Assembly (NCBI GenBank): GCA_045616905.1
Contig: JAZLHP010000060.1
Coordinates: 23,166-87,165, forward strand
Direction: 5' to 3'
Origin: Bacteroidaceae bacterium
GTDB lineage: Bacteria > Bacteroidota > Bacteroidia > Bacteroidales > Bacteroidaceae
Length of the DNA: 64,000 nt
Shown: positions 2,044-59,100 of the stretch, piece by piece
Numbering within the stretch: position 1 is the first letter of the stretch
Layout: every line of letters starts with the position of its first letter
The notes under the pieces: model-generated
The model's input: the letters and a program-made list of their open reading frames with translations, nothing else
What the model was told of the DNA's origin: nothing
The model's database searches: none
Program-made: the position numbers and the translations under genes

Positions 2044-2186
2044 CTCCAGCTAACGACGGAAGGTACTCACGCTCGGAAATACTAAAATAAATTTGGCTGT
2101 CGCCGAATTTAGGCGGCACCTCAGCATAAAAACAAGTTTTTCTGCATTCGGTTTGCACTAAATTTTGTATTTCTCTCACTTAATCG

Positions 2187-2194
2187 TACCTTTG
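2187..2194 (+). promoter_or_regulatory. -7 promoter box TACCTTTG
   Basis: TAnnTTTG match 17 nt upstream of ATG at 2211. Confidence 0.4.
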
Positions 2195-2210
2195 CAAAAA
2201 ATAACGCATT

Positions 2211-3143: not shown

Positions 3144-3215
3144 AGTCAGAAGTAAATAATCATAATTAATTCTGACCAATTACTTAGAAAGATATTAAAC
3201 ACTCCCAATATAATA

Positions 3216-6889: not shown

Positions 6890-6944
6890 TGACGAACTTC
6901 TTCTTTTTGTGACGGATTAATTCTCTGTGACAACACCCAGAACA

Positions 6945-8402
6945 ATGACAGAGCAGACATTAAAACAAAAAGCAGCAAAAGGATTCCTATGGGGAGCCTT
7001 GAACAATGGGGCAATGCAATTGCTGAACGCTGTGTTCGGCATTGTGCTGGCGCGTAAGCTTTCCGAAGACGACTATGGTCTCATCGGCATGCTCACCATC
7101 TTCACCCTCATTGCCAACTCACTGCAGGATAGTGGATTTGTCACAGCACTTACCAACAAGAAAGATGCCACTCACCGCGATTACAATTCCGTCTTCTGGT
7201 TCAATATCTGTGTGAGTGCCTGCTTGTACATCGTATTTTTCCTCTTTGCACCATTCATATCAGATTTCTATAACGAACCTCTGCTCACTCCCCTATCGCG
7301 TTTCTATTTCTTTGGCTTCTTCATAGCAAGCTTCAGCATAGTTCCACGAGCCATCCTCTTTCGCCAGCTTAAACAAAAAGAACTTGCCATCATGGCATTA
7401 GTATCCCTGTTGCTATCAGGCTCAGTAGGAATCATCATGGCATACAACGGTATGGCGTATTGGGGATTGGCAACACAGACACTCACATTCAACCTCTCAG
7501 TATCCGTTACAAGTTGGATTCTCAGCGGCTGGCGACCGACGTTCAGCATCAGCATGCAACCTGTCAAAGAGATGTTTGGATTCTCAAGCAAGATGCTCAT
7601 CACAAGCATTTTCAATCAAGTCAACAACAACATATTCTCACTCGTGCTCGGACGATTCTACACAAAGAGCGAGGTCGGCTTGTATAATCAGGCAAACAAA
7701 TGGAACACCATGGGAGCCTCAACCATAACTGGAATGGTGCAGGGAGTGGCACAACCTACCTTCGTCCAGGTAGGCGATGACAAAGAGCGTCTCTGCCGTG
7801 CTTTCAGCAAGATGCTTCGCTTCACATGCTTCATAAGCTTCCCTGTTATGTTCGGATTGGCACTGATAGCACCAGAGTTTATTGTCGTATTGATAACCGA
7901 CAAATGGCTGCCGTCTGCCAACCTCATGCGAATGCTGTGCATAGGTGGCGCATTCCTGCCTATTGCCACACTATACTTCAACATGGTGATTAGCCGAGGC
8001 AAGTCGGGTACGTACATGTGGAACATTATCAGCCAAGGATGCATAATCCTTGCCACCATCCTGTCCATACACTACCTCGGTGGAAGCATAAACGAGATGG
8101 TCATCTCATACGTTGCAATAGTAATTATATGGGTAGCCATCTGGCACATCTTCGTGAAGAAGGAGATAGGGTTCAGCCCTTTACAGGCATTGCGCGACAT
8201 ACTTCCATTTGCATTCTTTGCCGCAATCACAATGCTTGCCACATACTTAATCACCATTTCCATCACCAACATATACATACTGCTTGTCTCACGCATTCTC
8301 ATTGCAGCCACAATATACATTGCGCTCAACTATTTCTTCGGAGCGAAAATCATGCGTGAATGCTTGCAATACATTACTAAAAGCAAAGGAGGAGAGAAAT
8401 GA
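6945..8402 (+). CDS. wzx: Wzx-type polysaccharide flippase (MOP/PST family)
   Basis: About 485 aa with roughly 12-14 predicted TM segments. N-terminal KQKAAKGFLWGALNNG...LARKLSEDDYGL is typical of PST flippases. ATG 6945 is preferred over GTG 6927. Confidence 0.8.
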   Translation: MTEQTLKQKAAKGFLWGALNNGAMQLLNAVFGIVLARKLSEDDYGLIGMLTIFTLIANSLQDSGFVTALTNKKDATHRDYNSVFWFNICVSACLYIVFFLFAPFISDFYNEPLLTPLSRFYFFGFFIASFSIVPRAILFRQLKQKELAIMALVSLLLSGSVGIIMAYNGMAYWGLATQTLTFNLSVSVTSWILSGWRPTFSISMQPVKEMFGFSSKMLITSIFNQVNNNIFSLVLGRFYTKSEVGLYNQANKWNTMGASTITGMVQGVAQPTFVQVGDDKERLCRAFSKMLRFTCFISFPVMFGLALIAPEFIVVLITDKWLPSANLMRMLCIGGAFLPIATLYFNMVISRGKSGTYMWNIISQGCIILATILSIHYLGGSINEMVISYVAIVIIWVAIWHIFVKKEIGFSPLQALRDILPFAFFAAITMLATYLITISITNIYILLVSRILIAATIYIALNYFFGAKIMRECLQYITKSKGGEK

Positions 8403-9340
8403 CAGCACCAGTAGCCATGTTTGTCTATAATCGTGTGGACAACACCCGCAAGACGATAGAACACCTTCTTGACAACACTCTTGCCAAGGACACCGAACTG
8501 TACGTTTTCTCCGATGGAGGAAAGAATGAGCAATCATGGAAAATGGTGAACGAGGTGAGAGCCTATCTGCACGATGTAAAGGCAAAGGTTGAATCAGAGC
8601 ATTCGCTTAAAAGCATCACTATCGTCGAACGACCTGAAAACATCTATCTTGAGCGCAACATCACCGAAGGGATAGCACAGGTGTTTGAAACCCACGACCG
8701 CATCATAGTGCTTGAGGACGACATCGTCACATCACCCTACTACCTCCAATACATGAATGATGCTTTTGAGATTTACCACGATGTGAAGAAAGTGATGCAT
8801 GTGGCAGGATTCACTAACCTTAGCCTCGACGATGCCACTAAACCCTTCTACTTCACTCCCCACATGTCAGGATGGGGCTGGGGAACATGGCGCGACAGAT
8901 GGCAGCAGCATTTCACACATTATAAATCAAGAGAAGAAGCACTTGAAGGAATGACTGACGACGATTGCAATGCCATGCAATACGGTGGAGTGTTCCCTTG
9001 TCTCAAGAGTCTTGACAAGAATCCTATTCCATGGGATATTTGTTGGGAAATTGCCATCTACAAAGCAGGCGGACTTTGCCTCACTCCTGCACACACGATG
9101 GTAAGAAACATAGGATTGAAGAACGGCACCCACTTCCGATCATTCGACATTCTGCAACGCTATGAATTTGACCGCGAACCTTCACAGCAGCCACTTCAAC
9201 TGACAAAGATTGACAACCCCGACAAAGACCCCCATACAGAAGCACTCTTCGCAGAAGCCATCCGCGATTGGGGTATCCGCTACACCATGCTCGGAAAAGT
9301 CATCAGAGCAGTCGTAAAGAAAATTAAGAAATTAAGGTGA
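8399..9340 (+). CDS. GT-A fold glycosyltransferase, GnT-I (GT13)-like
   Basis: VAMFVYNRVDNTRKTIEHL..., IIVLEDDIVTSPYYLQY (EDD metal motif) and HMSGWGWGTWRDRW resemble the GnT-I family. ATGA overlap with wzx. Confidence 0.6.
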   Translation: MTAPVAMFVYNRVDNTRKTIEHLLDNTLAKDTELYVFSDGGKNEQSWKMVNEVRAYLHDVKAKVESEHSLKSITIVERPENIYLERNITEGIAQVFETHDRIIVLEDDIVTSPYYLQYMNDAFEIYHDVKKVMHVAGFTNLSLDDATKPFYFTPHMSGWGWGTWRDRWQQHFTHYKSREEALEGMTDDDCNAMQYGGVFPCLKSLDKNPIPWDICWEIAIYKAGGLCLTPAHTMVRNIGLKNGTHFRSFDILQRYEFDREPSQQPLQLTKIDNPDKDPHTEALFAEAIRDWGIRYTMLGKVIRAVVKKIKKLR

Positions 9341-19300: not shown

Positions 19301-19876
19301 TTCGTGATCGTATTCCAACTCAGGGTCAATGAAAGTAGTGTTGACATTGTTTTCAACACCAAAGAACTTTTCAGGGATACCGAACTTACCTATAAGACCT
19401 TCATAACCCAACTCGAATGTGTTGCCACCGAGGTCAGTTACTGTCCAGAAAGAATAAGGACGAGTATCAGCTCCGTCAACCCAAATTTCACTCTGACCGT
19501 CAGCAGTCAGGTAATTTGAAGTTGACTTGTTAGCGAAAGAATAGCAAGGATTGCTGTCTTCATCCAATTCACCTGACTCAGCAATGAGCCATTTGTAGCC
19601 GTTTACTGTAGCTCCATTAGTGCCTTTCTTCAATTCAATGAGTGTGGCATTGTCATTTGGACCAGTTGAATTACTCTTTACAACACAGGCACGAGTGCCC
19701 CAGTAGTTACCACCTGTCAAGAAGGCAGCACTTTCAACATTGTAAAGGTAAACAATTTCTTCAGCAGCGACTGCATCAGTAAAGCTTGTGTAAGTTACAA
19801 CAGGCTTCTTTGGCTGTGCAAATACGCTAACCGATGCAAGCATTGCGCCTGCAAGAAGAAGTAATGTTTTCTTCAT
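16304..19876 (-). CDS. Large acidic secreted protein with three internally repeated beta-sandwich (CBM/galactose-binding-like) modules and a T9SS CTD
   Basis: Signal peptide MKKTLLLLAGAMLASVSVFAQ. Three modules each begin with a W-T/S-Q/K motif (GPWTQKF, GTGWTQAF, GAWSWTK) and end in NW/WW...F-x-L-x-Y-x-G (NWMAFKKTSLMYYG, WWALWSNFKLTYEG, ARWFYCDNFSLQYLG). C-terminal EIFSVTGAKLNATQKGINIVKMSNGQVKKVYIK is T9SS CTD-like. Confidence 0.75.
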   Translation of the reverse strand: MKKTLLLLAGAMLASVSVFAQPKKPVVTYTSFTDAVAAEEIVYLYNVESAAFLTGGNYWGTRACVVKSNSTGPNDNATLIELKKGTNGATVNGYKWLIAESGELDEDSNPCYSFANKSTSNYLTADGQSEIWVDGADTRPYSFWTVTDLGGNTFELGYEGLIGKFGIPEKFFGVENNVNTTFIDPELEYDHEIDGETVKDLVSEGKFATTWALVSEEEYERVLPLLQAYYRYDGLALILADAKKEYPTLDFSAEQAVYDNATESTTIEELNAAITSIEKKIEDYKASLATFDDPMDFTSIIGDGSDVGPWTQKFTGSGTTGTWHTNSWSTEANDGADGTDMTIPFCEDWVGQGNKLSDQKIYQVLKNAAPGLYKFTADVRLYNEAGGIDKFEGIKMYFGDESINLGEECEMYKSGNKCVLWNKNYFTFITILEETGDIEFGFDLKDVNFNWMAFKKTSLMYYGNEDCEENALKLFYQTYEYEKSEDARANQSIIDDYNSAIDAFYSATDIPSAKAGLPAIEAAYKALNENIEAYDNLENAITDLDSKVSESESVGILVDMMIDLLDPNAGEDALEAFAEEDVPAEYIPAVTPWSLLEELNYDTKEVNDYISQLSSLWSYCLSNSLGEGQDCTELIKDADFKDKNGTGWTQAFKAGNLAWTGGFEVFPVAESWRSTFDIYQEVKAPDGIYSISLNGFARRESGSEQTVPAEIYLNDFATPLMNILDDQLPVEEAQDGYNCYLTKDAAGAYHDNPLFAENDKHSSPNNATDKTGDKGYYPDGMEGASIAFSADRYKATVYGIVEGGVMKIGVRNTSANWWALWSNFKLTYEGTNPEAVDAIGNALSQRALDVLDSDQAEYLPKTMKDALEEANAAVEDADEDVKYEKVMELNNVLKEVNPMIEAVSQFIEAQDAMGRAAEDNIETASAEAKAEYDELSILDYSTMTKKEIEDATAAMIKCAKKLRVPDTTGASPSNPVDMTQVIDDPELEGCAVNGDKLGAWSWTKNAGNGPVYPYDSETSSAVEFWCDPATNNKFSLTQKLAGLPAGTYQLTVEAGNSYNGVESLGNEGYAAVFAAVPDMDEAVEPIATITGEATETDSYTVEFYIPEGTDEVTIGVKTIGDLDARWFYCDNFSLQYLGADVPTAIEEASSAAAAKATEIFSVTGAKLNATQKGINIVKMSNGQVKKVYIK

Positions 19877-20268
19877 AATGATTGTTGTGGTTAGTTAATT
19901 AATAAAGTTATGTAAAAAAATTTTGTCTCTCTCTTTGCTAATAGCTACTTTCTCATACTCTCTTATATTATTTAAAATGTGTAAGATTCCGTAGCCAATT
20001 TTTATTACCGATTAAGTACAATAGGTCAATATGTAATTTTAATTGTGCAAATTACTTAAAAACAAATGAAATATCAAAATAAATAAAGAAAAATATTACT
20101 TTTAGATATAATTTTAACATTTACAACAGGTAAAGTACACCAATATTGTAACATTTGTTTTTATTTGAGTAACAAATTGTGGGATTCAACTGAAAGAAAA
20201 AGAAATTTCTTCTAATAATTCCAATTTCTTTTAGTTGTAAGTGAAGCATCGGGACATAAAATTATTTC

Positions 20269-20306
20269 TGTCGCGATGTAGCAATATTTTTGTCGTGACG
20301 TAGCAA
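20269..20306 (+). repeat. Direct repeat TGTCGyGAyGTAGCAA x2 with 22-bp period (iteron-like)
   Basis: TGTCGCGATGTAGCAA (20269-20284) and TGTCGTGACGTAGCAA (20291-20306). A GC-rich island within the AT-rich gap, 19 bp left of the first DnaA box. Confidence 0.7.
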
Positions 20307-20324
20307 ACTGGTCACTAACCACAG

Positions 20325-20679
20325 TTATCAACACCCCATGTTGATAACCTTGTTGATTTCTTGTTGAAAAGTATTAATAACTTTTTTTGGAAGTTATGGG
20401 ATAATTTTTAAACACAAATTGATTTGAAACGACCAAGAAAAGTTATTATTTTTTATCATTTTTCTTTCTACTGGTTTTATACATGTTATCCACATGCTTT
20501 TCCACAAGTTAAGGGTTTGAAAACTTTTATCAACAATGTGTTAATAATACATCCTTTCTATTGTTTTACAACGGATTAGCATGTTAATAATCTATGACTC
20601 TGTGATGATAATGGTTGCACCTCGAAATAATAAGTTAATAACCAAATTTTTCAGTGAAAAGTTATCCCCACTATCCACA
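20325..20679. other. DnaA-box cluster, candidate oriC core
   Basis: Perfect box TTATCCACA at 20486-20494. One-mismatch boxes: TTATCAACA 20325-20333 and 20527-20535, TGTTGATAA (inverted) 20339-20347, TTTTCCACA 20498-20506, TTATCCCCA 20662-20670, CTATCCACA 20671-20679. An A/T-only tract follows at 20680-20870. Confidence 0.5.
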
Positions 20680-20872
20680 ACCTATAATCATTATCATTTT
20701 TTTAAAAATTTAAAAAACTAATATAATAATTATATGAGAAAGTCTTAACTCCATTTGAAAGAAAGAATAATTATATGAAGCGCGAGCGCTTAGAAGTTTT
20801 TACAGAAATTAAAAGAAATTATATTCAGAAATATCCAAAAATTTAAAATTAAAATAAATAATTTTTGTTTCA

Positions 20873-20900
20873 TAAAAAAAGCCTGAGGTTGACCCCAGGC
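20873..20900 (-). terminator. Intrinsic terminator of the inositol-phosphate synthase gene
   Basis: The minus strand reads GCCUGGGGUCAACCUCAGGC followed by U7. The stem has one mismatch. Confidence 0.6.
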
Positions 20901-20928
20901 TTTATAATGTATTTGATAGAAGAAAGTT

Positions 20929-22233
20929 TTAGTCGATTTCTTCGTCTGCTTCGTATCCACCCATTTCGCGGATTGCGTTCTTGAGCATTGTGTATTGCTG
21001 GAAGAGGTGGTTGATTGGTTCCTCGTTCTGTGTGTAGTCGTGCATAGGAGCTTTGAGGTAGAAGCTTAGGAAGCGCTGGATTCCGCTTCTGCCGGCACGT
21101 GCAGCGAGGTCGCTGAGGAGGCAGAGGTCGAGAAGGAGTGGTGCTGCGAGGATTGAGTCACGGCAGAGGAAGTTTATTTTGATCTGCATTGGGTATCCCA
21201 TCCATCCGAAGATGTCGATGTTGTCCCATCCTTCTTTGTTGTCGTTGCGTGGTGGGTAGTAGTTGATGCGCACCTTGTGGTAGTAGTCGGTGTAGAGATC
21301 TGGCTGATTGTCGGCAACGAGGATGCTTTCGAGTGTTGAGAGCTTGCTGACCTCCTTAGTGCGGAAGTTAGCTGGCTCGTCGAGTACAAGTCCGTCGCGG
21401 TTGCCGAGTATGTTTGTTGAGAACCATCCGTTCAATCCGAGGCATCGTGTGCCGATGATTGGTGCGAATCCTGACTTCACGAGTGTCTGTCCTGTCTTGA
21501 AGTCCTTGCCAGCGATTGGCATTCCTGTCTTCTCTGCCATTTCCCACATTGCAGGGATGTCAACAGTTGTGTTTGGTGCTCCCATGATGAATGGTGCGCC
21601 TTCTGCGAGTGCTGCGTATGCGTAGCACATTGATGGTGCTATGTTGACGGTGTCGTTAGCCTTCATTGCTGCCTCGAGGTGCTCGAGTGTGTCGTGTACC
21701 TCCATGTTAGGTGCAACGTAGATTTCTGTTGATGCTGCCCATGCAACGACCACGCGTGAGCAGTTGTTGTCTGCCTTGAACTTGCGGATGTCGGCACGAA
21801 GCTCTTCTACCATGTCCCAACGTGTTGCACACTGCTTCACGTTGTCGCCATCGAGACGCTTAGCGAAGTTCTTGTCGAATGCTGCCTTGAAAGGTACAAT
21901 CTTCTCGAGTTCGTCCTTAACAGGCATGATGTCCTTTTCCTTGAGAACCTCAGCGTACATTGCACTCTGGAATGCGTTGGCTGGATAGACGTCCCATGCT
22001 CCGAACACGATGTCGTCGAGCTGTGCGAGTGGTACTATTTCAGAGTATGAGAGGTATTTCTTATCTGCACCTTTTCCTACGCGGATCTTGTCGTATTGTG
22101 TCATTGAACCAACAGGCTTTGAGAGGCCCTTGCGTGCCATGAGTACACCTGTCATGAAAGTAGAGGTTACGGCTCCTAAGCCGACAACCATTATGCCTAA
22201 TTTACCTTCGGCTGGCTTTACGTTTGATTTCAT
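20929..22233 (-). CDS. ino1: myo-Inositol-1-phosphate synthase (inositol-3-phosphate synthase)
   Basis: GIMVVGLGAVTSTFMTGV Rossmann start, ...SRVVVAWAASTE..., ...KDFKTGQTLVKS..., ...NILGNRDG... are typical of bacterial/archaeal MIPS. Start moved to MKSNVK (22233) because a TAAATTTG -7 box occupies 22261-22268. Confidence 0.9.
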   Translation of the reverse strand: MKSNVKPAEGKLGIMVVGLGAVTSTFMTGVLMARKGLSKPVGSMTQYDKIRVGKGADKKYLSYSEIVPLAQLDDIVFGAWDVYPANAFQSAMYAEVLKEKDIMPVKDELEKIVPFKAAFDKNFAKRLDGDNVKQCATRWDMVEELRADIRKFKADNNCSRVVVAWAASTEIYVAPNMEVHDTLEHLEAAMKANDTVNIAPSMCYAYAALAEGAPFIMGAPNTTVDIPAMWEMAEKTGMPIAGKDFKTGQTLVKSGFAPIIGTRCLGLNGWFSTNILGNRDGLVLDEPANFRTKEVSKLSTLESILVADNQPDLYTDYYHKVRINYYPPRNDNKEGWDNIDIFGWMGYPMQIKINFLCRDSILAAPLLLDLCLLSDLAARAGRSGIQRFLSFYLKAPMHDYTQNEEPINHLFQQYTMLKNAIREMGGYEADEEID

Positions 22234-22260
22234 TTCTATTTTTTTAGTTAAAATTATGTG

Positions 22261-22268
22261 CAAATTTA
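22261..22268 (-). promoter_or_regulatory. -7 promoter box TAAATTTG for ino1
   Basis: TAnnTTTG match 27 nt upstream of ATG 22233. Confidence 0.45.
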
Positions 22269-22356
22269 ATACAAAAATTCTTTATTAGGTTGTTCTTTTG
22301 TATATTAATATTGTCCAATATGGAACAATAATATTTTTTTTAGTATTTTTTAAAAG

Positions 22357-22545
22357 TTAAAGGCGGCTTATGAAGTCTTTCTTTATTTCAGATAGTTTGT
22401 CTTCTGACAGGTTTGGGAAGTGTTTTCTTATTACTTCGTCGAATGCCTGTTGTGCAATGACTCGCATCTGTGCCTTACCTGCACGAAGTCCTGAGGATAG
22501 TTCAGTCTTGGGCAGCAGTTGCCTGTTGAAATTTCCGTCGCTCAT
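22357..22545 (-). CDS. Hypothetical small hydrophilic protein (62 aa)
   Basis: The ATG lies 2 nt after the stop of the upstream barrel gene (TAAGTATG), which suggests co-transcription. I recognise no family. Confidence 0.4.
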   Translation of the reverse strand: MSDGNFNRQLLPKTELSSGLRAGKAQMRVIAQQAFDEVIRKHFPNLSEDKLSEIKKDFISRL

Positions 22546-22547
22546 AC

Positions 22548-23945
22548 TTATTTTCCGAATGGGAAGTTAATGCCTACGCTGAAACTGCTGTTCTTTGCTA
22601 AAGGAACGCCTTGCTTTGCTATGTTGAAGAATGTGTGATCCATTCCTGCGAAGATGTTGAATCCTCTTGGGTGGAAGTTGAGGAGCCATCCGAAGCTTGC
22701 TCCGAATGTGCCTGCTGACACGCTTGCTGATGCTGAGAAGATGTTGGTAGGTGAGACGTTGGCGCTCAGACGGAAGTCTGTCCAGCTGTACTTACCTGCC
22801 ATGCGTGTGCTGTTGAGGAATCCGAAGGAGAGCTTGTCGTAGAAGTCGGGTGTGTATTCGACTCCGAGGTTCATGGTTGCTGCGAGTGCCTTGCTTCGGC
22901 TGCCCTGGTTGCCTTTGTTGTGGATTTCGTAGAGGTCGGCAAGTCCTTCGCCCATGCGGTCGAACTCACGCTCGAATGAGTTTTCTGCATCGTCGTCGGG
23001 ATTGAAGATGTAGTCGTTGGTGTTTATCTTCTGCTCTCCGTTGGTGGATGCGAGTATGTTGTTGTTCCAGCCGATGAAGCCAAGGTCAAGGAGTGATGCT
23101 GACACGCTCCAGTTGTCGTCAATCTTGTATTCGGCACCGAGATCAACGGCAAGTCCGAATCCGTTGAGCCCGAACTTGTCAACTTTAACGTCGCTGACGT
23201 AGGTGTGCTCGACTTCCTGTCCTTCGGCACCTCGCATCTTCTTCTTCTCTTCTAACGTGAGGTTCTTGATGCTTGCTTGCACTTCAGCATCGACGGTGCC
23301 GCTGAAACCACCGTTCTCATTGAGTTCAAGAATTGCCTTGTTGGCTTTTACATCCACGTTTCCAAGTCCTAAGAGTATCTTGAGCTTGGCACCAATGCGG
23401 AGGTTGTCGTTTAGCTGGTGGCTGTGGCCTAATGCGAGTTCGGTGTAGGCGTCGGCATGGATGGCAAGGTCTTTGATGTCGTAAGTCTTGTTGGCAGGAC
23501 CTTCCTTGGCAAGTCTGAGGAGTTCTCCCGGCACGTTAAGGCTTGCGTTCTCACGCACGTTGATTTCAAACGTGTTGTAGCCGTTCATTCCCTTGAATCC
23601 GAATCCGAGTACCTGCAGCTTGAGGTCTTCGGCAATCCTGTTCTTGTCTTTCACTCCCTTGAGGAACTCTTCGGTACTGACTTCTGGGTGCAGGAAGGTG
23701 GCTGTGCGTCCGTTGATATTGAAGAGTATCTGCTTGACACCGATGTTTCCTATCTTGCTTGCGTTGACATTGCCAATGCCTGGGAATGCCACGTAGCCTT
23801 GGTCATTGCCGAATGCAGGGTTGATTTCGTGGCGGTAGAGGTAGCCGTCGTTGAAGTAACCTGTGTTGAGGTTCTGAGAGTTTGCTGCGGTTGACATGAT
23901 GCTGAGTACAGCAGCAGTCATAGTATGTTTTATGTTGAAATTCAT
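22548..23945 (-). CDS. Putative outer-membrane beta-barrel protein (possibly DUF5723-like; from memory)
   Basis: Signal peptide. Alternating hydrophobic beta-strand pattern, Gly/Asn-rich. Ends in ...FSVGINFPFGK with an aromatic residue near the C-terminus. Confidence 0.55.
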   Translation of the reverse strand: MNFNIKHTMTAAVLSIMSTAANSQNLNTGYFNDGYLYRHEINPAFGNDQGYVAFPGIGNVNASKIGNIGVKQILFNINGRTATFLHPEVSTEEFLKGVKDKNRIAEDLKLQVLGFGFKGMNGYNTFEINVRENASLNVPGELLRLAKEGPANKTYDIKDLAIHADAYTELALGHSHQLNDNLRIGAKLKILLGLGNVDVKANKAILELNENGGFSGTVDAEVQASIKNLTLEEKKKMRGAEGQEVEHTYVSDVKVDKFGLNGFGLAVDLGAEYKIDDNWSVSASLLDLGFIGWNNNILASTNGEQKINTNDYIFNPDDDAENSFEREFDRMGEGLADLYEIHNKGNQGSRSKALAATMNLGVEYTPDFYDKLSFGFLNSTRMAGKYSWTDFRLSANVSPTNIFSASASVSAGTFGASFGWLLNFHPRGFNIFAGMDHTFFNIAKQGVPLAKNSSFSVGINFPFGK

Positions 23946-24008
23946 AATTTTGTACTATTTGGGTGTTTATTCATGTTTATAAATATATTAAAGGGAAGTT
24001 GATTGGAG

Positions 24009-25742
24009 TTAGAGTTCCTTGTCGTAGTATCCGCTAATCTTTACCTTGAATTTATTCATTTTAAGGTCCATTTCAGGGCTGAGAGTGTCTGTTGTCTTCT
24101 GCTTCATGTAAGCCTTGATAAGAATGCCGTCGAAGTGCTTGATTTCGCCTTTTACTGAAAGTTCTATTGGCTGTTCCTTTGCTTTTGCGTTCACCTTTGC
24201 TGTACTTGAGGTGACGTTAGGGATTACTTTTCCGTCAATTCCTATTGGCATGACCGTGAGATCCATGTCGAATGGAACATCAGTGCTGCCGTCGAATGTG
24301 ACGAGGATGTCTGAGATTGTGATGTTGTCAACCTCTTTGTCGTTCCATCCGTCGAGGGTGTCAGTATAGACGATTGACGATTCTTCGGTGAGGGTGAGTG
24401 GTGCGTAGAATGTGTAACTGCCCTTGATTGGTTCGTAAATCTTGCCGAGTTCGAGGTCGGTGACTGATTGAGCTGGAATCTTTTCGTCGATGAGCTGCAC
24501 CTTGACGGTGTTTGGTATTCCTTCTACATCGGCAAGAACGTGTCCTAATGTTGAGAACTGAACGTGCTTGATGTTGCTCACGTTCTTGTATGTGGTGTAG
24601 TAAGTATCTGGGTTCTTTGGCGAGAGCACGAAGTAGTTGTCGTTGACGCCTTTGTCGGTTGCAAGTATGTTTTCAGGCGAGTATTCGTGTGCCTGCTTGT
24701 CGCGCATAGTGGTGAGCTTGAACCCTGACTGAACGTAGAGGTCGTACTCTGACAATGGGTTGTTAACATTGAGGTAGAGCTGTGGGTTGTCGAGCACAAT
24801 CTTTGTGCCTGACTGATTGATGAGGTCAGGGATGTTGCTGAAGTTAACATCTTCTATCTTGGTGTCTTCAACTTCGTATTCAAGTTCTCCAGTAACTGTC
24901 TTGACGGTTATCTCGCTCATGTCTGGAATGTTGTGAATCTTGATGGTAGAAGGGAACTGGTTGTCAATGTTGACGATTATCTTGCCGTCGAGGACTTCGA
25001 ACTTGTCTTTGAGGGTAAGGTTGTGTTTATTGAGGTCGAGGTTGATGTTTGAATTTTCTACATCAATGCCTGTGATTTCGTACTTTATTTCAAATTCGCC
25101 GTTGTTGTCTGGCTTAATTTCAGGAATGGTGAGGATACCTGTTGACTTGTCGTAAGTGCCAATGCTTGGCGTTCCTTCAAATCCCTTTGGGTACTTGATG
25201 ACGAGGTTCTCAATGGTGACGTTGGCAAGCTGGTTCTTGTTGAGACCTTCAATCTTCACTTTGTTGGAGTAGCTTGCCTCGACTCCTAATCTCTTTATGT
25301 CAATGATTGAATTGTCAACATTGTCTGATGTGAAGTTGATTTCAGATGGTTCAATGTTGATGTCGTAGTATGCTGTGAAGCCTTGTGTTGCGGGGTTATC
25401 GGCATAGGTGATGTTGAGCTCGCTCGTTTTCTTTTCGGTTGATGGCTTGCTGGATGTGAAAATGTGTACATTAACAGGGTTGGATTTAAAGGTTCCTTCT
25501 TTCAAAATGGCGTATTGCTTCTTGCCATTGATAAGCTCTGTAATTATTTCGCTGTTGTCATTGATGTCGAGCACTTGGTCGAGGGTGACTTTCTCAATGT
25601 TCATAGGAACTACTAAGTCTTTCGTTACGAAACGTGCTGTGGTGTCAATGTCGCTTAAGTCGTAATTGTTGTCAACGCACGAAGAAAGAATGAGTGCTGT
25701 TGATGTTAATATACCTGTTGATAAGTACTTAATTAGTTTCAT
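24009..25742 (-). CDS. Hypothetical surface lipoprotein (577 aa)
   Basis: Lipobox ...ALILSSC followed by VDNNYDLSDID. Asn/Thr/Ile-rich beta-type sequence. 64 nt upstream of the barrel gene on the same strand. Confidence 0.65.
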   Translation of the reverse strand: MKLIKYLSTGILTSTALILSSCVDNNYDLSDIDTTARFVTKDLVVPMNIEKVTLDQVLDINDNSEIITELINGKKQYAILKEGTFKSNPVNVHIFTSSKPSTEKKTSELNITYADNPATQGFTAYYDINIEPSEINFTSDNVDNSIIDIKRLGVEASYSNKVKIEGLNKNQLANVTIENLVIKYPKGFEGTPSIGTYDKSTGILTIPEIKPDNNGEFEIKYEITGIDVENSNINLDLNKHNLTLKDKFEVLDGKIIVNIDNQFPSTIKIHNIPDMSEITVKTVTGELEYEVEDTKIEDVNFSNIPDLINQSGTKIVLDNPQLYLNVNNPLSEYDLYVQSGFKLTTMRDKQAHEYSPENILATDKGVNDNYFVLSPKNPDTYYTTYKNVSNIKHVQFSTLGHVLADVEGIPNTVKVQLIDEKIPAQSVTDLELGKIYEPIKGSYTFYAPLTLTEESSIVYTDTLDGWNDKEVDNITISDILVTFDGSTDVPFDMDLTVMPIGIDGKVIPNVTSSTAKVNAKAKEQPIELSVKGEIKHFDGILIKAYMKQKTTDTLSPEMDLKMNKFKVKISGYYDKEL

Positions 25743-25913
25743 GGTTATAGTTTTTTATGTTTTTCCATTTGCAAATATAATAATTTGTATTCTTAATTTT
25801 TAAGTTTTGTTATTATTTTATTAACAAATCATTACATATTTTTATTTCTGTGTTCGTAATAGTTAATTTTTCATTACTTTTGTATGGATTTTTAATGTTA
25901 ATAAGTTATCAAC

Positions 25914-26885
25914 ATGGTGTTAACAACTGATGAAATTTACATGAGGCGATGCATTCAATTGGCTCGCAACGGACAGCAGAACAGTCAACCTAATCCGATG
26001 GTGGGTGCGGTGATTGTGTATTTTGGTGATGATGATGAGGGCAGAATAATTGGCGAGGGTTATCATGTGCGTTGTGGTGAGGGTCATGCTGAGGTTAATG
26101 CTTGTGCTTCGGTAAAGCCGGAAGATGAGCATCTGCTGAGTGAATGCACCATTTACGTGAGTCTTGAGCCTTGCAGTCATCATGGCAAGACACCTCCTTG
26201 TGCTGACCTGCTCGTGAGAAAGCATTTCAAGAGATGCGTGATTGGTTGTCAGGATCCGTTTGCAAAGGTGCAGGGGCGCGGAATTAAGAAGCTGATGGAT
26301 GCCGGAATAGAGGTGAAGGTGGGTGTGCTGGAGGATGAGTGCAAGGAACTGAACAGTCGTTTCATGACGTTTCACGGCAAGCACCGTCCGTTTGTGACGC
26401 TGAAATGGGCTCAGTCGGCTGACGGGTTCATTGATGGTGGCATTTCAAATATTTTCACACAGATGCTTTGTCATAAAAGGAGGGCTGAGCATCAAGCAAT
26501 AATAGTGGGGCATGGTACTTACGACATTGACCACCCTACCCTGACGACTCGTGAATGGTACGGTCCTTCGCCTCGCAGATACGTGGTGGCTGAGAGTGAA
26601 GTGGTTGGATTGGCTGAGGGTTTCAGTCAGATAAGAAGTCATGAGGTGGCTGAAATATTGAATGTTCTGTATGAGGATGGCATTCAGACGGTTCTCGTTG
26701 AAGGTGGCGCTAAACTCCTTCAAGCGTTTATCGACAGCGGACTTTGGGATGAGTGCTTCGTGGAGAAAGGTATTGATAAAATAAATGGCAGTGTAGAAAA
26801 TCCTACACTACCATTGAATGATTGCTCTGTTTCTGAAGAAATATTTATGGGCAGAACTATTCTGAAAGCAAAAATGCGAGAATGA
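25914..26885 (+). CDS. ribD: Bifunctional riboflavin biosynthesis deaminase/reductase
   Basis: CMP/dCMP deaminase zinc motifs HAEVNA and PCSHHGKTPPC, followed by an RibD_C-type reductase domain (RPFVTLKWAQSADG...). Confidence 0.9.
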   Translation: MVLTTDEIYMRRCIQLARNGQQNSQPNPMVGAVIVYFGDDDEGRIIGEGYHVRCGEGHAEVNACASVKPEDEHLLSECTIYVSLEPCSHHGKTPPCADLLVRKHFKRCVIGCQDPFAKVQGRGIKKLMDAGIEVKVGVLEDECKELNSRFMTFHGKHRPFVTLKWAQSADGFIDGGISNIFTQMLCHKRRAEHQAIIVGHGTYDIDHPTLTTREWYGPSPRRYVVAESEVVGLAEGFSQIRSHEVAEILNVLYEDGIQTVLVEGGAKLLQAFIDSGLWDECFVEKGIDKINGSVENPTLPLNDCSVSEEIFMGRTILKAKMRE

Positions 26886-26933
26886 CCCACTAAGGGAGCA
26901 CCCCCGGGGATGACCCAGGATATGACCCCTCTA

Positions 26934-26991
26934 AGGGAGAGGGGGACAAGGGGAACAAGAGGAACAGGGACAAGAGGAGAAGGGGAGAAGG
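26934..26991 (+). repeat. Purine-only degenerate tandem tract of about 8-nt period, GG(G/A)ACAAG units
   Basis: GGGAGAGGGGGACAAGGGGAACAAGAGGAACAGGGACAAGAGGAGAAGGGGAGAAGG. No T and only four C. Lies between convergent ribD and ybeY. Confidence 0.8.
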
Positions 26992-26993
26992 AT

Positions 26994-27431
26994 TTAAAAA
27001 GGTGCTGTGCTGAGTGCTTTGTTCTCGGCTGCTTCCATTATTTCTCTTTCACCAGGTCCTTTATCGTTTATGCCTACGAGGTGGAGGACTCCGTGTATGA
27101 TGACGCGATGCAGTTCTTCTTCGTATGTGGCTCCTTGCTGTTCGGCATTAGTACGAACTGTGTCAAGGCTTATGAAGAGGTCGCCTGAAATGGTGTTCGG
27201 ATTGCCCATCATCTCTTCATCTTCGCAATAGTCGAAGGTGATGATGTCTGTGTAATAGTCGTGTTGGAGGTATTGGCGGTTTACCTCCAATATCTTTTCG
27301 TCGTCGCAAAAAATGTAGGCGATGCTTCCTACTTTTTTGCCGTATGACTCGGCTACTTGCTTTATCCATGCAGAGGTGTCTCTGCGGCGAATCTTTGGCA
27401 TCTTAACGCCGTCTGTCTGGTATGAGATCAT
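26994..27431 (-). CDS. ybeY: rRNA maturation endoribonuclease YbeY
   Basis: HRVIIHGVLHLVGINDKG (H-x-x-x-H-x-x-x-x-x-H zinc motif). 145 aa. Confidence 0.85.
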   Translation of the reverse strand: MISYQTDGVKMPKIRRRDTSAWIKQVAESYGKKVGSIAYIFCDDEKILEVNRQYLQHDYYTDIITFDYCEDEEMMGNPNTISGDLFISLDTVRTNAEQQGATYEEELHRVIIHGVLHLVGINDKGPGEREIMEAAENKALSTAPF

Positions 27432-29062
27432 TCTTCTTCCTTTATTGCTTTTAATCCTGCCTTGTAAATTTCGCTAATTTCATTCATTATCTGATAATAC
27501 TCGCTCATGTCCCAAAGGTCGCGTGCGAGGAGTGCCTTGAGCTGGAGTTTTATCATTGGTAATGACTGCTGAAGTATTGAATCGTTGTATTCAATCTTAG
27601 CGTCTTTTGCCTTTTCAAGAAGAATGTCAATCATCTCTTGAGGAATCTCGTACGTGTCCTTGTAGCGATAGAATCCTTCGTAGAGCAACTTAGGATCGTA
27701 TGGTTTATTGGCTGTCTGCTTTGCCTTCAACTTACGGAAAGTGTCGATGTCGTATTGCTTGACGAGCGACTTGCGGTTCTTGTCGAGATACTTAAGTGTG
27801 GTTTGTATTATGCAGCTCTTTGCTGACAACTCACGATGGAATCGTGTGTAAGTGGTGGTGTCGAGTGGCACGTAAATGTCTGGCATGATGCCTCCGCCAC
27901 CATAGACGATGCGACCGCCTTTTGTTGTGTATTTGAGTGAGTCAGGGAAGTGTATGCTGTCGGCACTCATGAGCTCTCCGCTGTTGAGACGGTCTAGCAT
28001 GTCGTGGTCGTAGCTTTTCTTGTCGCCTTTGACGTAAGGTTTCTGGAAACAGCGTCCCACAGGGCTGTAGTAGTGTGCTACGGTGAGTCGTATCATTGAG
28101 CCGTCAGGAAGGTCGATAGGACGCTGAACAAGACCTTTGGCAAATGTGCGTCTGCCTACTATTGTTCCGCGGTCGTTATCCTGTATTGCTCCTGAAAGGA
28201 TTTCGGCTGCTGATGCTGTGTAACCATCAACAAGAACCACTACTTTGTTTATGTTAAGCTTTCCTGGCTTGGCACGGTATTCCTTACGCCCTACCCTGCG
28301 TCCTTCTGTGTAAACAATCATCTCGTTGTCAGAAAGGAATTCGTTGGACATGTCAACAGCTGCCTGCAAGTAGCCGCCACCATTGCCCTGAAGGTCAATG
28401 ATAATGTCTTTCATGCCTTGTCCAAAGAGGAACTCAGTTGCCTTGATGAATTCGTCGTGAGTGGTGGCACCGAAACTGCTGATGCGTACGTAACCTGTTG
28501 TCTTGTCAATCATGTAGTAAGCATCAATAGTGTAAACAGGAATCTTGTCGCGTGTGACGGTGAATGTCTGAATGCCCTTTATTCCCTGACGAATGACTCC
28601 AAGCTTGACCTTTGTGTCCTTTGGTCCTCGGAGGCGTTTCATTATTTCTTCACGCGTCATCTTCACTCCTGCAATGGCTGTGTCATTGACAGTCACAATC
28701 TTATCGCCTGCAATGATTCCCACCTTTTCAGAAGGTCCTCCACTAACAGGTTGAATGACAACGAGTGTGTCTTCGTTCATGTTATACTGCACTCCGATAC
28801 CCTCAAATGAACCCGTGAGAGGTTCGTTGAGTGCTTGCACATCTTTGGCTGGGGTGTAGCTTGAGTGTGGGTCAAGTTCTTTAAGCATTCCCTTGATGGC
28901 GTCTTCTGTAAGTTTTGAAATGTCAACACTATCAACATAAAGCTGGTTGATGGCACTTTCTGCAAACAGGAGTTTACGGTAGTATGAATCTAATGTTGCG
29001 TTTTGTCCGAATGAAACGGCAGATGCACAGAGCATCAGTATGGTAAAAAGATATTTTTTCAT
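27428..29062 (-). CDS. ctp: S41-family C-terminal processing peptidase (PDZ domain)
   Basis: Signal peptide, PDZ region (GPSEKVGIIAGDKIVTVND), catalytic region VLVDGYTASAAEILSGAIQD...TFAKGLVQ. Confidence 0.85.
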   Translation of the reverse strand: MKKYLFTILMLCASAVSFGQNATLDSYYRKLLFAESAINQLYVDSVDISKLTEDAIKGMLKELDPHSSYTPAKDVQALNEPLTGSFEGIGVQYNMNEDTLVVIQPVSGGPSEKVGIIAGDKIVTVNDTAIAGVKMTREEIMKRLRGPKDTKVKLGVIRQGIKGIQTFTVTRDKIPVYTIDAYYMIDKTTGYVRISSFGATTHDEFIKATEFLFGQGMKDIIIDLQGNGGGYLQAAVDMSNEFLSDNEMIVYTEGRRVGRKEYRAKPGKLNINKVVVLVDGYTASAAEILSGAIQDNDRGTIVGRRTFAKGLVQRPIDLPDGSMIRLTVAHYYSPVGRCFQKPYVKGDKKSYDHDMLDRLNSGELMSADSIHFPDSLKYTTKGGRIVYGGGGIMPDIYVPLDTTTYTRFHRELSAKSCIIQTTLKYLDKNRKSLVKQYDIDTFRKLKAKQTANKPYDPKLLYEGFYRYKDTYEIPQEMIDILLEKAKDAKIEYNDSILQQSLPMIKLQLKALLARDLWDMSEYYQIMNEISEIYKAGLKAIKEEE

Positions 29063-29159
29063 CGAGTAATCCTTCTTTACTTATTGTTGTTTTTTACGTT
29101 CTTAATTGAAGTCAGGTTGTTGACTTCCACCTGACTCGTTTATGTGATGAATCCTTTGT

Positions 29160-29600
29160 TTAAGGAATGAATTCTTTAACGTCTTTTCCGTATGAAAGGA
29201 GTTCGCGGACAACACTTGAGCTTATGCACGACAGTTCTGGCGATGTGAGCATAAGCACGGTTTCTATGCCGGTAAGCTTTTTGTTGACTTCGGCAATGTC
29301 ACGCTCAAACTCATAGTCTTTGACGCTTCGCACGCCTCTGAGAAGAAAGTCTGCATTTATCTTCCTTGCATAGTCTGTGGTGAGTCCTTCGTATGATTCA
29401 ACTCTTACGCGCGGTACATTAATATAAATATCTTTAATGGCAGCTATGCGTTCGTCCAACGAGAACATGTATTTCTTGTTGTAGTTGACTCCAATGGCAA
29501 TTACGACCTCATCGGCAATGCTGTTGAGAGCACGGTCAACGATGTCTTTGTGTCCTTTGGTGAAAGGGTCAAAGCTGCCTGCGAATAAAGCTGTTTTCAT
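29160..29600 (-). CDS. coaD: Phosphopantetheine adenylyltransferase
   Basis: [21 protein letters not shown] (T/H-x-G-H motif) and ...ISSSVVREL. 146 aa. Confidence 0.9.
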
Positions 29601-31582
29601 AACTCTTCGTCTGGTCGGTCTTCCTCAATAACGAGATTGTTGATAATAAAGTTCTGACGCTGCATGGTGTTCTTACCCATGTAGTATTCAAGCAGTTCCT
29701 TCACTTGATCGGTTTTGCGCAATTTAACTTCTTCAAGTCGCATGTCTGCACCGATGAAGTTGCGGAACTCATCAGGACTTATCTCGCCAAGACCTTTGAA
29801 TCGTGTTATTTCAGGGTCAGGACCAAGCTTCTCTATTGCGTCAACACGCTCTTCATCGCTGTAGCAATAGATGGTGATGAATTCTCCCTTGCTGTCAGGA
29901 TGTTCACTCATGTACTGCTCGAGGACGCTTTTCTTAATGCGCTTTTTCTTGTTTCGTACACGGAAGAGCGGTGTCTGCAGTATGTGAACGTGTCCTTGTC
30001 TGATAAGTTCAGGGAAGAACTGCAGGAAGAATGTTATCATAAGCAGGCGGATGTGCATACCGTCAACATCGGCATCGGTTGCAACGATTACTTTATTGTA
30101 TCTCAAACCGTCTATTCCGTCTTCTATGTTGAGTGCTGCTTGAAGAAGGTTGAATTCTTCGTTCTCATACACGACCTTTTTTGTCAAGCCGAATGAGTTG
30201 AGTGGTTTTCCTCGCAACGAGAACACAGCCTGAGTCATTACGTCACGACTCTTGGTGATGCTTCCGCTGGCAGAGTCGCCCTCGGTGATGAATATGCTCG
30301 TGTCGAATCGTGGGTCAACAACCTCCTCTTCCCTATTCTTTGATGCCTTTGGAGGTGCATCGTTGAGGTGAATCTTGCAGTCACGCAGTTTGCGGTTGTG
30401 AAGATTGGCTTTCTTTGCACGTTCGCGAGCCAATTTAGTTACACCTGCAATAGCTTTACGGTCGCGCTCGTTGTCTTTGATTTTCTGCTCAATAACTTCA
30501 GCAACATCAAGATTCTTATGAAGATAGTTGTCAACTTCCTGCTTTATGAAATCACCAACGAACTTGTTGACGCTGATGCCTCCGTTTGGCTCCATGGTGA
30601 GAGAGCCAAGCTTTATCTTTGTCTGACTTTCAAATTGAGGCTCTTGCACGTTGATGGCAATGGCTGCTACTATTCCTGAGCGGATGTCGCCATACTCATA
30701 GTTCTTGCCGAAGAATTCCTTTATGGTGCGAGCTATGTGTTCCTTGAAGGCACTCTGGTGCGTGCCTCCCTGAATGGTGTGCTGACCGTTGACGAATGAA
30801 TGGTATTCTTCGCCATATTGCTGGTTGGTGTGTGTGAATGCTATTTCTATGTCTTCTCCTTTCAGATGCACGATTTCATACATGGCTGTTGTGTCCATCG
30901 TGTCTTTAAGGAGGTCTTTCAAACCGTTGCGACTTACGATTTTAGATCCGTTGTGGTAGATTTCAAGTCCTGTGTTGAGGTAAGTGTAGTTGCGAAGCAT
31001 GTTGCTTACGAACTCGTCTTGGAACTTGTAGTTGAGAAACAATGTGTTGTCTGGTTCGAAATAAATGAACGTGCCGTTTTCCTCGGTGGTTTTTTCCGTC
31101 TTGTCGCTTGTGAGAACACCCTTCTCGAAGGTAGCGATACGCACCACTCCTTCGCGGTATGAGCGAACTTCGAAATGAGAGCTCAGAGCGTTTACAGCTT
31201 TTGTACCCACACCGTTGAGACCTACTGACTTTTTGAATGCCTTTGAGTCGTATTTACCTCCGGTGTTGAGCATACTGACAGCTTCTATCATTTTTCCTTG
31301 AGGAATGCCACGGCCATAGTCACGGATGCTGGCAGACATGTTATCGTGGATTTCCACCTCGATGCGTTTGCCGGCATTCATCTTGAACTCGTCAATAGAG
31401 TTGTCAATGATTTCCTTAAGCAATACATAAATGCCATCTTCTGCATGGCTGCCATCACCTAATCGTCCGATGTACATGCCAGGACGGGTGCGGACATGAT
31501 CCATGTCAGACAAATGGCGTATGTTGTCGTCATTGTACTCTACCGTTGGCTGATTGTTATTTGCTGTTTCTATTTCCATCAT
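29597..31582 (-). CDS. parE: Type IIA topoisomerase B subunit, topoisomerase IV ParE-like
   Basis: [15 protein letters not shown] ATPase motifs ([16 protein letters not shown]), Toprim EGDSA and DADVDGMHI. The [13 protein letters not shown]-terminal pattern resembles Bacteroidota ParE rather than GyrB. Confidence 0.75.
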
Positions 31583-31636
31583 AAATTGTTATTCTCAACG
31601 ATTACCCACTCTAACCTCTCCACTCTATCCTCACCA

Positions 31637-32767
31637 CTACAACGACTTCTTGAAGCAGCGTCTTCTCTTGTGCTGTCTTCTTTCAAAGTATATCCATTGC
31701 GATTGCACCTTGTCGTTTACTTCCAATTCAGGGTTTGTCTCTACGTATTCGTATCCTTCTTGAATGTAGATAGGCAGAAGGTCGTAGAAAAGGATTGAAT
31801 TGATTCCTTTGCCTTGGTATTCAGGAAGGATGCCAACGAGCAGAAGGTCAAGTGTCTTTGGTTTCTTCCACTTGAGTGTTTTAATAAGATGATACCATCC
31901 GAATGGGAATAGTTTTCCTTTTGCTTTCTGCAATGCTCTCGACATTGAAGGCATTGATATGCCCACTCCTACGAGTCGTCCATCAGCTTCCGTAATGAGG
32001 CTTACAAGCTTGAGGTCAACGAATGACAAATATGTGTCAACGTATTTGTCTATCTGTTTCTGACTCAATTCGCTATAACCGAATAATGGCTTGAACGCTT
32101 CGTTGATAACGTGGAAAATATCTTGTCCGTATTCTTTTGCAATCTTCTTTGCTGACGTGTATTTCTTAATGTGCAAGTCGTATTTCTTCATTACGATTTC
32201 TGCAATGCGTGAAAGACGCTCAGGCACACCAGTTTCCCTTGGCACGGTCATCAGCATTTCAATCCAGTCGGCATCCTTAGCAAAACCGAGTTTTTCCATG
32301 TGAACAGGATAGTAAGGATGGTTGTAGATGGTTGCCATGGTGGACATTTCATCGAATCCTTCTATAAGCATGCCTTCAGGATCCATGTCCGTGAAACCGA
32401 GAGGTCCTTGTATCTCAGTCATTCCACGCTGTCTGCCCCACTCTTCTACTGCCTCAATGAGTGCTTTGCTTACTTCTTCGTCATCAATGAAATCAATCCA
32501 TCCGAAGCGAACGCACTTGAGGTTCCATGTTTTGTTTGCCTTTTTGTTGATGATGGCTGCAACTCGACCTACTATCTTTCCTCTCTTGTATGCAAGGAAG
32601 TAATCTGCCTCGCAGAATTCCATTGCAGGGTTCTTGTCTGTAAGTGTTTCCAGCATGTCTTCGTATAGATCTGGAACAGAGTATGGATTGTCTTTATATA
32701 ATTCGTAATTGAATCTTATGAATTGTTTGAGTTCTTTTTTTGTTTCAACTTTTTTAATAGTAACCAT
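31637..32767 (-). CDS. GNAT-fold N-acyltransferase family protein
   Basis: MVTIKKVETKKELKQFIRFNYELYKDNPYSVPDLYED... plus C-terminal ...LLVGILPEYQGKGINS (acetyl-CoA binding Q/R-x-x-G-x-G/A type). Start taken at the second Met (32767). Confidence 0.6.
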   Translation of the reverse strand: MVTIKKVETKKELKQFIRFNYELYKDNPYSVPDLYEDMLETLTDKNPAMEFCEADYFLAYKRGKIVGRVAAIINKKANKTWNLKCVRFGWIDFIDDEEVSKALIEAVEEWGRQRGMTEIQGPLGFTDMDPEGMLIEGFDEMSTMATIYNHPYYPVHMEKLGFAKDADWIEMLMTVPRETGVPERLSRIAEIVMKKYDLHIKKYTSAKKIAKEYGQDIFHVINEAFKPLFGYSELSQKQIDKYVDTYLSFVDLKLVSLITEADGRLVGVGISMPSMSRALQKAKGKLFPFGWYHLIKTLKWKKPKTLDLLLVGILPEYQGKGINSILFYDLLPIYIQEGYEYVETNPELEVNDKVQSQWIYFERRQHKRRRCFKKSL

Positions 32768-32770
32768 AAT

Positions 32771-32850
32771 TAAGTAGGAAATCAAAATTAATTTATTATG
32801 TATAAGCAGGTCGTTTTTTTTTTGTAAAACTAATTGTGATTACCTACTTA
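32771..32850. repeat. Three-part inverted-repeat element, copy A (arms TAAGTAGGAAATCA / TGATTACCTACTTA, internal direct half-copy TAAGCAGGT, T10 run)
   Basis: Arms are complementary at 13 of 14 positions. About 85 percent identical by eye to the element at 46486-46590. The gene-proximal arm carries TAATTTTG (-7 box, minus strand, 32783-32790). Confidence 0.7.
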
Positions 32851-44206: not shown

Positions 44207-44259
44207 AAAAATTGCTCCCTCGCGATGTAACAATTGTTATGTCACGAGGGAGCAATTTT
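44207..44259. terminator. Bidirectional hairpin terminator between convergent genes
   Basis: 14-bp stem AAATTGCTCCCTCG / CGAGGGAGCAATTT flanked by an A-run on the left and a T-run on the right. Confidence 0.6.
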
Positions 44260-58870: not shown

Positions 58871-58895
58871 ATCTTCCGAAAATATAAACTGACTG

Positions 58896-58903
58896 CAAAA
58901 ATA
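58896..58903 (-). promoter_or_regulatory. -7 promoter box TATTTTTG for mnmG
   Basis: TAnnTTTG match 25 nt upstream of ATG 58870. Confidence 0.4.
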
Positions 58904-59100
58904 CGCATATTGCCAAAATCTTGCAAGTTTTTGATACAAACATTTTTATTATAGGTGTTAATAAGTATAAACCTCCTTGAGAGTGAGGGTTACAATTGGA
59001 TATCGGTTGTGGTTTCTAAAAGAATAGACGTGATTCTTGCACTATACTTTTCTAACAGTAATTATTGTCATAATTGTTTTGTTGTTTCATACATTTGTGT

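Follow-up and report, generated by a model that had tools for sequence, protein, structure and literature searches.

The question raised by this 64-kb stretch of bacterial DNA (hereafter the window, meaning the whole of the stretch analysed) is whether its longest intergenic gap is the place at which replication of a chromosome starts. We consider it likely that the chromosome of an uncultured, Prevotellaceae-like gut bacterium of the Bacteroidales starts its replication in this gap, which would be a DnaA-dependent origin (oriC). An earlier note on this DNA had put the gap forward as a candidate chromosomal origin, and this proposal is supported by a cluster of DnaA boxes, by a switch in strand composition, by a pair of tandem boxes next to an A+T-rich stretch, and by the housekeeping genes of the flanks. 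The box cluster, its orientation, the local instability of the DNA and the composition switch were observed directly.

19877 to 20928, no strand: candidate oriC-bearing intergenic gap, 1052 bp, 26% G+C

The runner-up among the intergenic gaps of the window measures 676 bp, and the G+C content elsewhere, in 2-kb windows, is 36-49%, in line with the description of the gap as strongly A+T-rich. The gap had also been called the longest stretch free of open reading frames (ORFs). It is indeed the longest intergenic gap, but 14 ORFs of at least 20 amino acids overlap it; these are low-complexity, the longest has 56 codons' worth of residues (56 aa), and none of the 14 is a convincing coding candidate. 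The left border is the start codon of a gene for a surface-type protein of 1190 aa and the right border is the stop codon of ino1 (myo-inositol-1-phosphate synthase), both on the minus strand. Besides the candidate oriC, the gap contains, on the left, the region upstream of the 1190-aa gene and, on the right, the terminator of ino1.

DnaA boxes and strand composition around the gap

Seven DnaA boxes with no or one mismatch were found within 355 bp:

20325, plus strand: DnaA box TTATCAACA, one mismatch
20339, box on the minus strand: DnaA box TGTTGATAA, one mismatch
20486, plus strand: DnaA box TTATCCACA, perfect, the only perfect one
20498, plus strand: DnaA box TTTTCCACA, one mismatch
20527, plus strand: DnaA box TTATCAACA, one mismatch
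20662, plus strand: DnaA box TTATCCCCA, one mismatch
20671, plus strand: DnaA box CTATCCACA, one mismatch

Six of the seven give a TTATCCACA-like reading on the plus strand and point to the right. When the 1052-bp gap itself, at its 26% G+C, was shuffled 2000 times with dinucleotides preserved, the mean number of boxes was 0.38 (standard deviation 0.62) and the maximum 3, against the 7 observed. The densest 355-bp stretch elsewhere in the window held 2 boxes, the other A+T-rich gaps held at most 2, and the densest 500 bp in 1.56 Mb of other Bacteroidales DNA (L001-L086) held 4. One-mismatch boxes of the TTATCAACA type are present elsewhere in the window too. The criterion of Mackiewicz for a box cluster is at least three boxes with a mean spacing below 100 bp (quoted in PMC7561715); the mean spacing of the seven boxes is ~58 bp. 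When weaker sites were included, the following arrangement was recovered:

20315 to 20371: left box array, CTAACCACA (two mismatches), then GTTATCAACA-N5-TGTTGATAAC-N2-TGTTGATTTC-N1-TGTTGAAAAG
20351 and 20362, minus strand: weaker inverted boxes TGTTGATTT and TGTTGAAAA
20486 to 20547, plus strand: central boxes, TTATCCACA at 20486, TTTTCCACA at 20498, TTATCAACA at 20527 and an inverted TGTTAATAA with two mismatches at 20539
20540, 20583 and 20634: the three copies of GTTAATAA
20662 to 20679, plus strand: tandem pair of abutting, co-oriented boxes, TTATCCCCA and CTATCCACA, directed at the A+T-rich stretch

All of the seven boxes claimed by the earlier note were recovered with matching coordinates and strands, and the weaker inverted boxes (20351-20369) and the GTTAATAA copies that it had mentioned are present as well. 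In the left array, one plus-strand box faces three minus-strand boxes whose starts lie 12 and 11 bp apart; DnaA may oligomerise on this candidate array. The tandem boxes at 20662-20679 are in turn a candidate anchor pair of a basal unwinding system (BUS).

The strand composition of the window switches at the same place. The cumulative G-C curve had its window minimum at 20752 and the curve of A+C minus G+T (keto-excess) its maximum at 20861, both inside the gap. The same switch was visible gene by gene at third codon positions. The A/T skew of the plus strand (AT3) was positive for every one of the 15 left-hand genes and negative for every one of the 29 right-hand genes, while the G/C skew (GC3) was negative in 14 of the 15 and positive in 26 of the 29. 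The sides were thus separated by the sign of AT3 for 44/44 genes and by that of GC3 for 40/44, irrespective of the coding strand. Both the change of sign and, for the right side, its independence of the coding strand had been proposed from hand counts, and the full computation bore them out. A two-term fit (side and coding strand) attributed 0.095 to the replication term and 0.066 to the coding term; with it, the residual sum of squares fell from 853 to 361. The polarity of this local switch is the one expected at an oriC, with the strands leading away from the gap enriched in G and T, and leading-strand enrichment in G+T is the majority pattern in Bacteroidetes (PMC5291525). The reversed composition extends over at least 20 kb to the left and at least 43 kb to the right.

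Housekeeping genes were found on both sides of the gap (prmC, ribD, ybeY, parE, purL, polA, uvrC, and mnmG). The absence of dnaA from the window, already stated in the earlier note, was corroborated, with no Bac_DnaA domain in the 30 of the larger ORFs scanned against Pfam and no DnaA-type Walker A motif in a six-frame search of the window. The dnaA-linked type of origin (rpmH-dnaA-dnaN) is defined by adjacency to dnaA or dnaN, and no dnaA was found in the window; this adjacency is not expected in Bacteroidetes. That an origin lacking an adjacent dnaA would be unusual, as had been implied, did not hold, since an oriC far from dnaA is common in Bacteroidetes according to DoriC (PMC4755523). The locus is therefore an ordinary example of its kind and its novelty is low.

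The closest parallel by description is chromosome 1 of Prevotella intermedia OMA14, whose oriC was predicted from a cluster of DnaA boxes at a skew transition, with dnaA not nearby (Naito et al. 2016, PMC4755523). Both loci belong to the order Bacteroidales and combine a cluster of Escherichia coli-type DnaA boxes at a GC-skew transition with a remote dnaA, and both origins were defined by the same kind of computational evidence. They differ in that the window comes from a distinct lineage, which is uncultured; the two loci were compared by description rather than by sequence or synteny.

If the gap is an oriC, it provides an uncultured lineage of Bacteroidales with an origin coordinate that is well supported. 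It could be used to orient the metagenome-assembled genome (MAG) and to estimate growth rates from metagenome coverage (peak-to-trough ratio), and it would add a Bacteroidales example to the origin databases, experimental data for the phylum appearing to be scarce. What is known of origin biology is unchanged by this locus.

The A+T-rich stretch and a candidate unwinding module

The tandem boxes aim into the A+T-rich right part of the gap, which is the usual layout of boxes and unwinding element. Two features were delimited there:

20680 to 20870, no strand: candidate DNA unwinding element, 82-84% A+T
20684 to 20704, minus strand: candidate DnaA-trios, seven consecutive central-A triplets, 3'-TAT TAG TAA TAG TAA AAA AAT-5'

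At -103 kcal/mol over 100 bp (window mean -134, standard deviation 7.9), the candidate unwinding element is the second least stable stretch of this length in the window. Its earlier description as almost pure A/T went too far: the actual A+T content is 82-84% and a G+C palindrome, AAGCGCGAGCGCTT, lies inside it at 20778-20791. The exact 13-mer AATAATTATATGA occurs in it twice, at 20725 and 20766, 41 bp apart.

The run of triplets begins 4 nt past the proximal box of the tandem pair and 13 nt past the distal one. The published search rule for a BUS combines a box with at most two mismatches (ideally a co-oriented tandem pair), a spacer of 0-16 bp and at least three NAN triplets, and the modal published spacer between box and trios is 13 (PMC8287927). 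In the gap, each of the tandem boxes has one mismatch, the spacer measures 4 or 13 nt depending on the box, and seven NAN triplets follow.

From these elements we infer binding of DnaA, a site of unwinding and firing of an origin, as follows. DnaA would occupy the perfect and near-perfect 9-mers at 20325-20679, and ATP-DnaA would oligomerise from the tandem boxes at 20662-20679 onto the adjoining NAN triplets of the bottom strand. The A+T-rich stretch 20680-20870 would then melt, the helicase would be loaded there, and forks would depart both ways from the gap. The evolutionary outcome of such bidirectional forks would be a plus strand enriched in G and T on the right of the gap and a minus strand enriched in them on its left. 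The dnaA gene would lie elsewhere on the chromosome, as is usual for the phylum. The strand assigned to the trios relative to the box rests in part on the E. coli and Bacillus subtilis sequences.

The oriC of E. coli lies between gidA/mnmG and mioC, apart from dnaA, with mnmG as its classical left neighbour. There, a box in the TTATCCACA orientation leads into an adjacent A+T-rich unwinding element that carries repeated 13-mers, and weaker sites form arrays with gaps of 2-3 bp. The present gap resembles it in being separated from dnaA, in the TTATCCACA-oriented box leading into an A+T-rich stretch that bears a repeated 13-mer, and in the arrays of weaker sites, whereas the sequence of the 13-mer is unrelated. 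There are no GATC sites in the 1052-bp gap against ~60 in the whole window; a sequestration of the Dam/SeqA type is therefore not indicated, in contrast to E. coli. The mnmG (gidA) gene, adjacent to the origin in E. coli, is found here at 56933-58939 on the minus strand, 36 kb to the right of the candidate origin, with polA (48668-51544) and uvrC (54366-56201) located in between.

The BUS of B. subtilis consists of DnaA-boxes 6/7 together with DnaA-trios (PMC6669920, PMC8287927, PMC10721633). The gap shares with it a co-oriented pair of boxes, a short spacer (4/13 nt), at least three central-A triplets and A+T-rich DNA. It differs in that its triplets are TAT, TAG and TAA, mostly of the form TAN, and not the GAT/AAT of the consensus, and in that the origin proposed here is beside neither dnaA nor dnaN.

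Points against an origin and rival explanations

Several observations weigh against an oriC in the gap, and we gather them here. As regards strand composition, the switch is known from 64 kb and the minimum is that of the window. Furthermore, the 1190-aa gene (16304-19876, minus strand) has the GC3 skew of the right side (+0.16), a sign opposite to that of all other left-side genes, with the AT3 sign expected for the left. Because of this gene, GC-based breakpoints at 16.2 kb and 20.4 kb are nearly equivalent, with GC skew and GC3 skew fitted slightly better by 16.2 kb. The gene may be a recent acquisition, or may have an atypical codon usage beside the origin.

As regards gene orientation, transcription runs in the direction of the putative forks for only 48% of the coding bases, and we rejected a bias in gene orientation as support for an origin. 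Eight of the nine genes in 20929-32785 are on the minus strand, head-on to the rightward fork, confirming what had been noted for the first ~12 kb on the right. The third-position skew of this head-on block is fully adapted; the arrangement is therefore old and not a recent inversion.

As regards the unwinding module, 20680-20870 provides the unstable, A+T-rich element expected of an oriC, though three other intergenic spots (25745, 22262, and 32915) are equally A+T-rich and unstable. The permissive NAN rule is undiscriminating: of the positions with a similar A+T-richness, 57% show three or more such triplets in a row and 4.4% seven or more. Only the last two of the seven triplets conform to the DnaA-trio consensus, 3'-[G/A]A[T/A]-5', and in place of a G+C cluster before the trios there is the weakly G+C-rich spacer ACCT. 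The triplet run is compatible with an unwinding module, and we did not count it as evidence for one.

As regards related genomes, the candidate origin was not recovered beside the genes shared with them. The presence of PorZ, of the type IX secretion system, and the best protein matches place the uncultured organism within Bacteroidales, near Prevotellaceae; the best identities of the neighbouring proteins were 90% for ino1, 70% for a DUF5723 protein (after one match of 100%, on an NCBI MAG contig of 96 kb) and 59% for PorZ. Judging from its proteins, this organism is a distinct, isolated lineage, the retrievable relatives having 55-70% protein identity in the flanking genes that were used as anchors. 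None of the 80 ino1-anchored loci had a box cluster beside ino1, and none shared the gene order of the window; some Muribaculaceae loci showed a skew minimum just past ino1, with neither a box cluster nor an A+T-rich stretch. No box cluster was seen beside the common genes in the DUF5723-anchored loci checked (L081, L082-L086), which retain only the pair of the 577-aa and DUF5723 genes, plus ribD in one of them. Nor was there a cluster upstream of the prmC-PorZ-(CotH)-GT2 block in five PorZ-anchored loci. A homologous intergenic region was thus found in none of the ino1-, DUF5723- and PorZ-anchored loci. The lack of a box cluster beside the common genes is explained by the gene order not being kept: gene order around the site is unconserved at this distance, and these loci say nothing of a loss of the origin. 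A scan for homologous origins with the 16-base tandem-box pattern was impractical, this pattern being too common (more than 120 matches in viral contigs alone).

As a separate observation, the GT2-CotH-PorZ-prmC block (9341-16188, minus strand) keeps its order in distant Bacteroidales (L214-L217) at 55-59% PorZ identity, and its surroundings are all rearranged in these relatives.

The explanation that best survives next to an oriC is a cluster of DnaA boxes without origin function at a rearrangement boundary, acting either as a titration/reactivation site or as a DnaA-regulated promoter of the 1190-aa surface-protein gene. Clusters of the former kind include datA and DARS in E. coli and DnaA-box clusters of B. 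subtilis. The position of the boxes, upstream of the 1190-aa gene and 450-800 bp from its divergently placed start, would suit such a role, the off-side GC3 skew of that gene is compatible with a local rearrangement or acquisition, and there is no origin-like bias in gene orientation. However, chance would have to place the sole significant cluster of 64 kb within ~100 bp of the skew extremes. The third codon positions are moreover fully equilibrated over at least 20 kb on the left and at least 43 kb on the right, and any inversion must therefore be old and large. The tandem boxes with their unstable flank also have the layout of an unwinding module, unlike a simple titration cluster. We thus regard this explanation as unlikely.

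That the origin belongs to a secondary replicon (chromid or megaplasmid) or to an integrated element, and not to the main chromosome, seems to us quite improbable. Some Prevotella species do have two chromosomes (PMC4755523), 64 kb are insufficient to establish the identity of a replicon, and a polysaccharide-synthesis cluster and a large surface-protein gene are nearby. Against this, the genes around the site are housekeeping genes of single-copy type (parE, polA, uvrC, mnmG, purL, prmC, ybeY, and ribD), no Rep, Par, integrase or relaxase was found among the Pfam-scanned ORFs, and there was no match in PLSDB. The second chromosome of P. intermedia, for its part, is without a clear skew transition and has a Rep_3 gene, not a DnaA-box origin (PMC4755523). 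A plasmid-type origin was likewise rejected, the gap having no similarity to any PLSDB plasmid.

An assembly or binning artefact, in which a misjoin of two segments, unrelated or of differing orientation, at the low-complexity A+T-rich stretch would have produced an apparent skew switch, is very improbable. The source is indeed a MAG contig and the junction was seen in one assembly. However, the correlation of symmetrised tetranucleotide usage is higher across the gap (r = 0.93) than from one half of the right arm to the other (r = 0.84), and this coherence of the flanks argues against a chimeric join. The box cluster lies entirely inside the gap and is significant alone, and a misjoin would not yield a directional box layout.

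Finally, that the gap is an ordinary long regulatory region whose boxes arise from its A+T-rich composition is barely credible: other intergenic regions are equally A+T-rich and TTATCAACA-type one-mismatch boxes do occur elsewhere in the window, but the shuffles (mean 0.38 and maximum 3 in 2000 trials, vs 7) effectively refute this explanation and the other A+T-rich gaps have two boxes at most.

A phage array with matching geometry and minor features of the window

The left box array has a counterpart in an uncharacterised family of phages with 33% G+C, represented by contigs of 34-61 kb from IMG/VR and JGI metagenomes (L207/L208, L210-L213). The part of the window array concerned, at 20324-20371, reads AGTTATCAACA-N5-TGTTGATAAC-N2-TGTTGATnnC-N1-TGTTGAnAA, and the intergenic array of the phages reads AGTTATCAACA-N5-TGTTGATAAC-N2-TGTTGATAAC-N1-TGTTGATAAC, followed by two further copies. 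The phage arrays were located as follows:

L207, 4700 to 4800: phage array
L208, 9506 to 9605: phage array
L211, 51 to 150: phage array
L212, 1384 to 1483: phage array

The first four phage sites have the sequence, orientation and spacing (N5, N2, N1) of the left array of the window. The sequences of the spacers vary between the phages and the window and among the phage variants, with the sites and their spacing constant, which points to a shared constraint on binding geometry rather than to a recent transfer. In the JGI metagenomes, the array pattern with its 27 specified bases matched this phage family only. The genes neighbouring the array in the phages gave nothing above threshold in PHROGs or Pfam (there was a sub-threshold RepL match, E = 0.009), and the phages had no match in INPHARED.

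These phages may carry a mimic of the oriC array of their Bacteroidales host, recruiting the host DnaA for their own replication or titrating it; we advance this as a tentative and rather doubtful suggestion. If it is true, TGTTGATAAC arrays phased at 12/11 bp would act as a functional unit in the origins of Bacteroidales. The phage array is the only lead at this locus that goes beyond the ordinary, and should host DnaA bind it, one would have a testable example of a phage that copies a portion of its host's origin.

The minor features of the gap include a repeat to the left of the boxes and a terminator at the right end:

20269 to 20306, plus strand: direct repeat of a 16-mer, TGTCGCGATGTAGCAA and TGTCGTGACGTAGCAA, 22 bp from start to start
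20878 to 20903, minus strand: ino1 intrinsic terminator, with a stem of 11 bp and then a T-run

The terminator is outside the origin proper. An RNA gene in the gap was rejected, with no Rfam family reaching the gathering score (at the permissive limit of E < 1, the matches were at chance level only) and no tRNA or tmRNA gene. A promoter of the Bacteroidetes type (TAnnTTTG) for the 1190-aa gene was also rejected, this motif being absent from the minus strand of the gap. The 1190-aa protein itself has a signal-peptide-like N-terminus, as in a secreted or surface protein, and its sole Pfam match is a C-terminal DUF5013.

The pair of 16-mers forms a G+C-richer island immediately to the left of the DnaA boxes. 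Allowing up to two mismatches, the only other site in the window is at 44240, which deviates at two fixed positions. The repeat is possibly the binding site of an accessory or regulatory protein.

Further to the left, a polysaccharide or teichoic-acid-like cluster occupies 973-9340 on the plus strand, head-on to the putative leftward fork. Its genes encode an acyltransferase_3 protein, a nucleotidyltransferase-aminotransferase fusion, a LicD-octopine dehydrogenase fusion, a Polysacc_synt flippase and a GT2 protein. On the other side of the gap, the ino1 ORF as listed (20929-22263, minus strand) opens with TTG. Since most ino1 homologues align from residues 9-14 onward, its start is more likely the ATG at 22233 (MKSNVKPAEG...).

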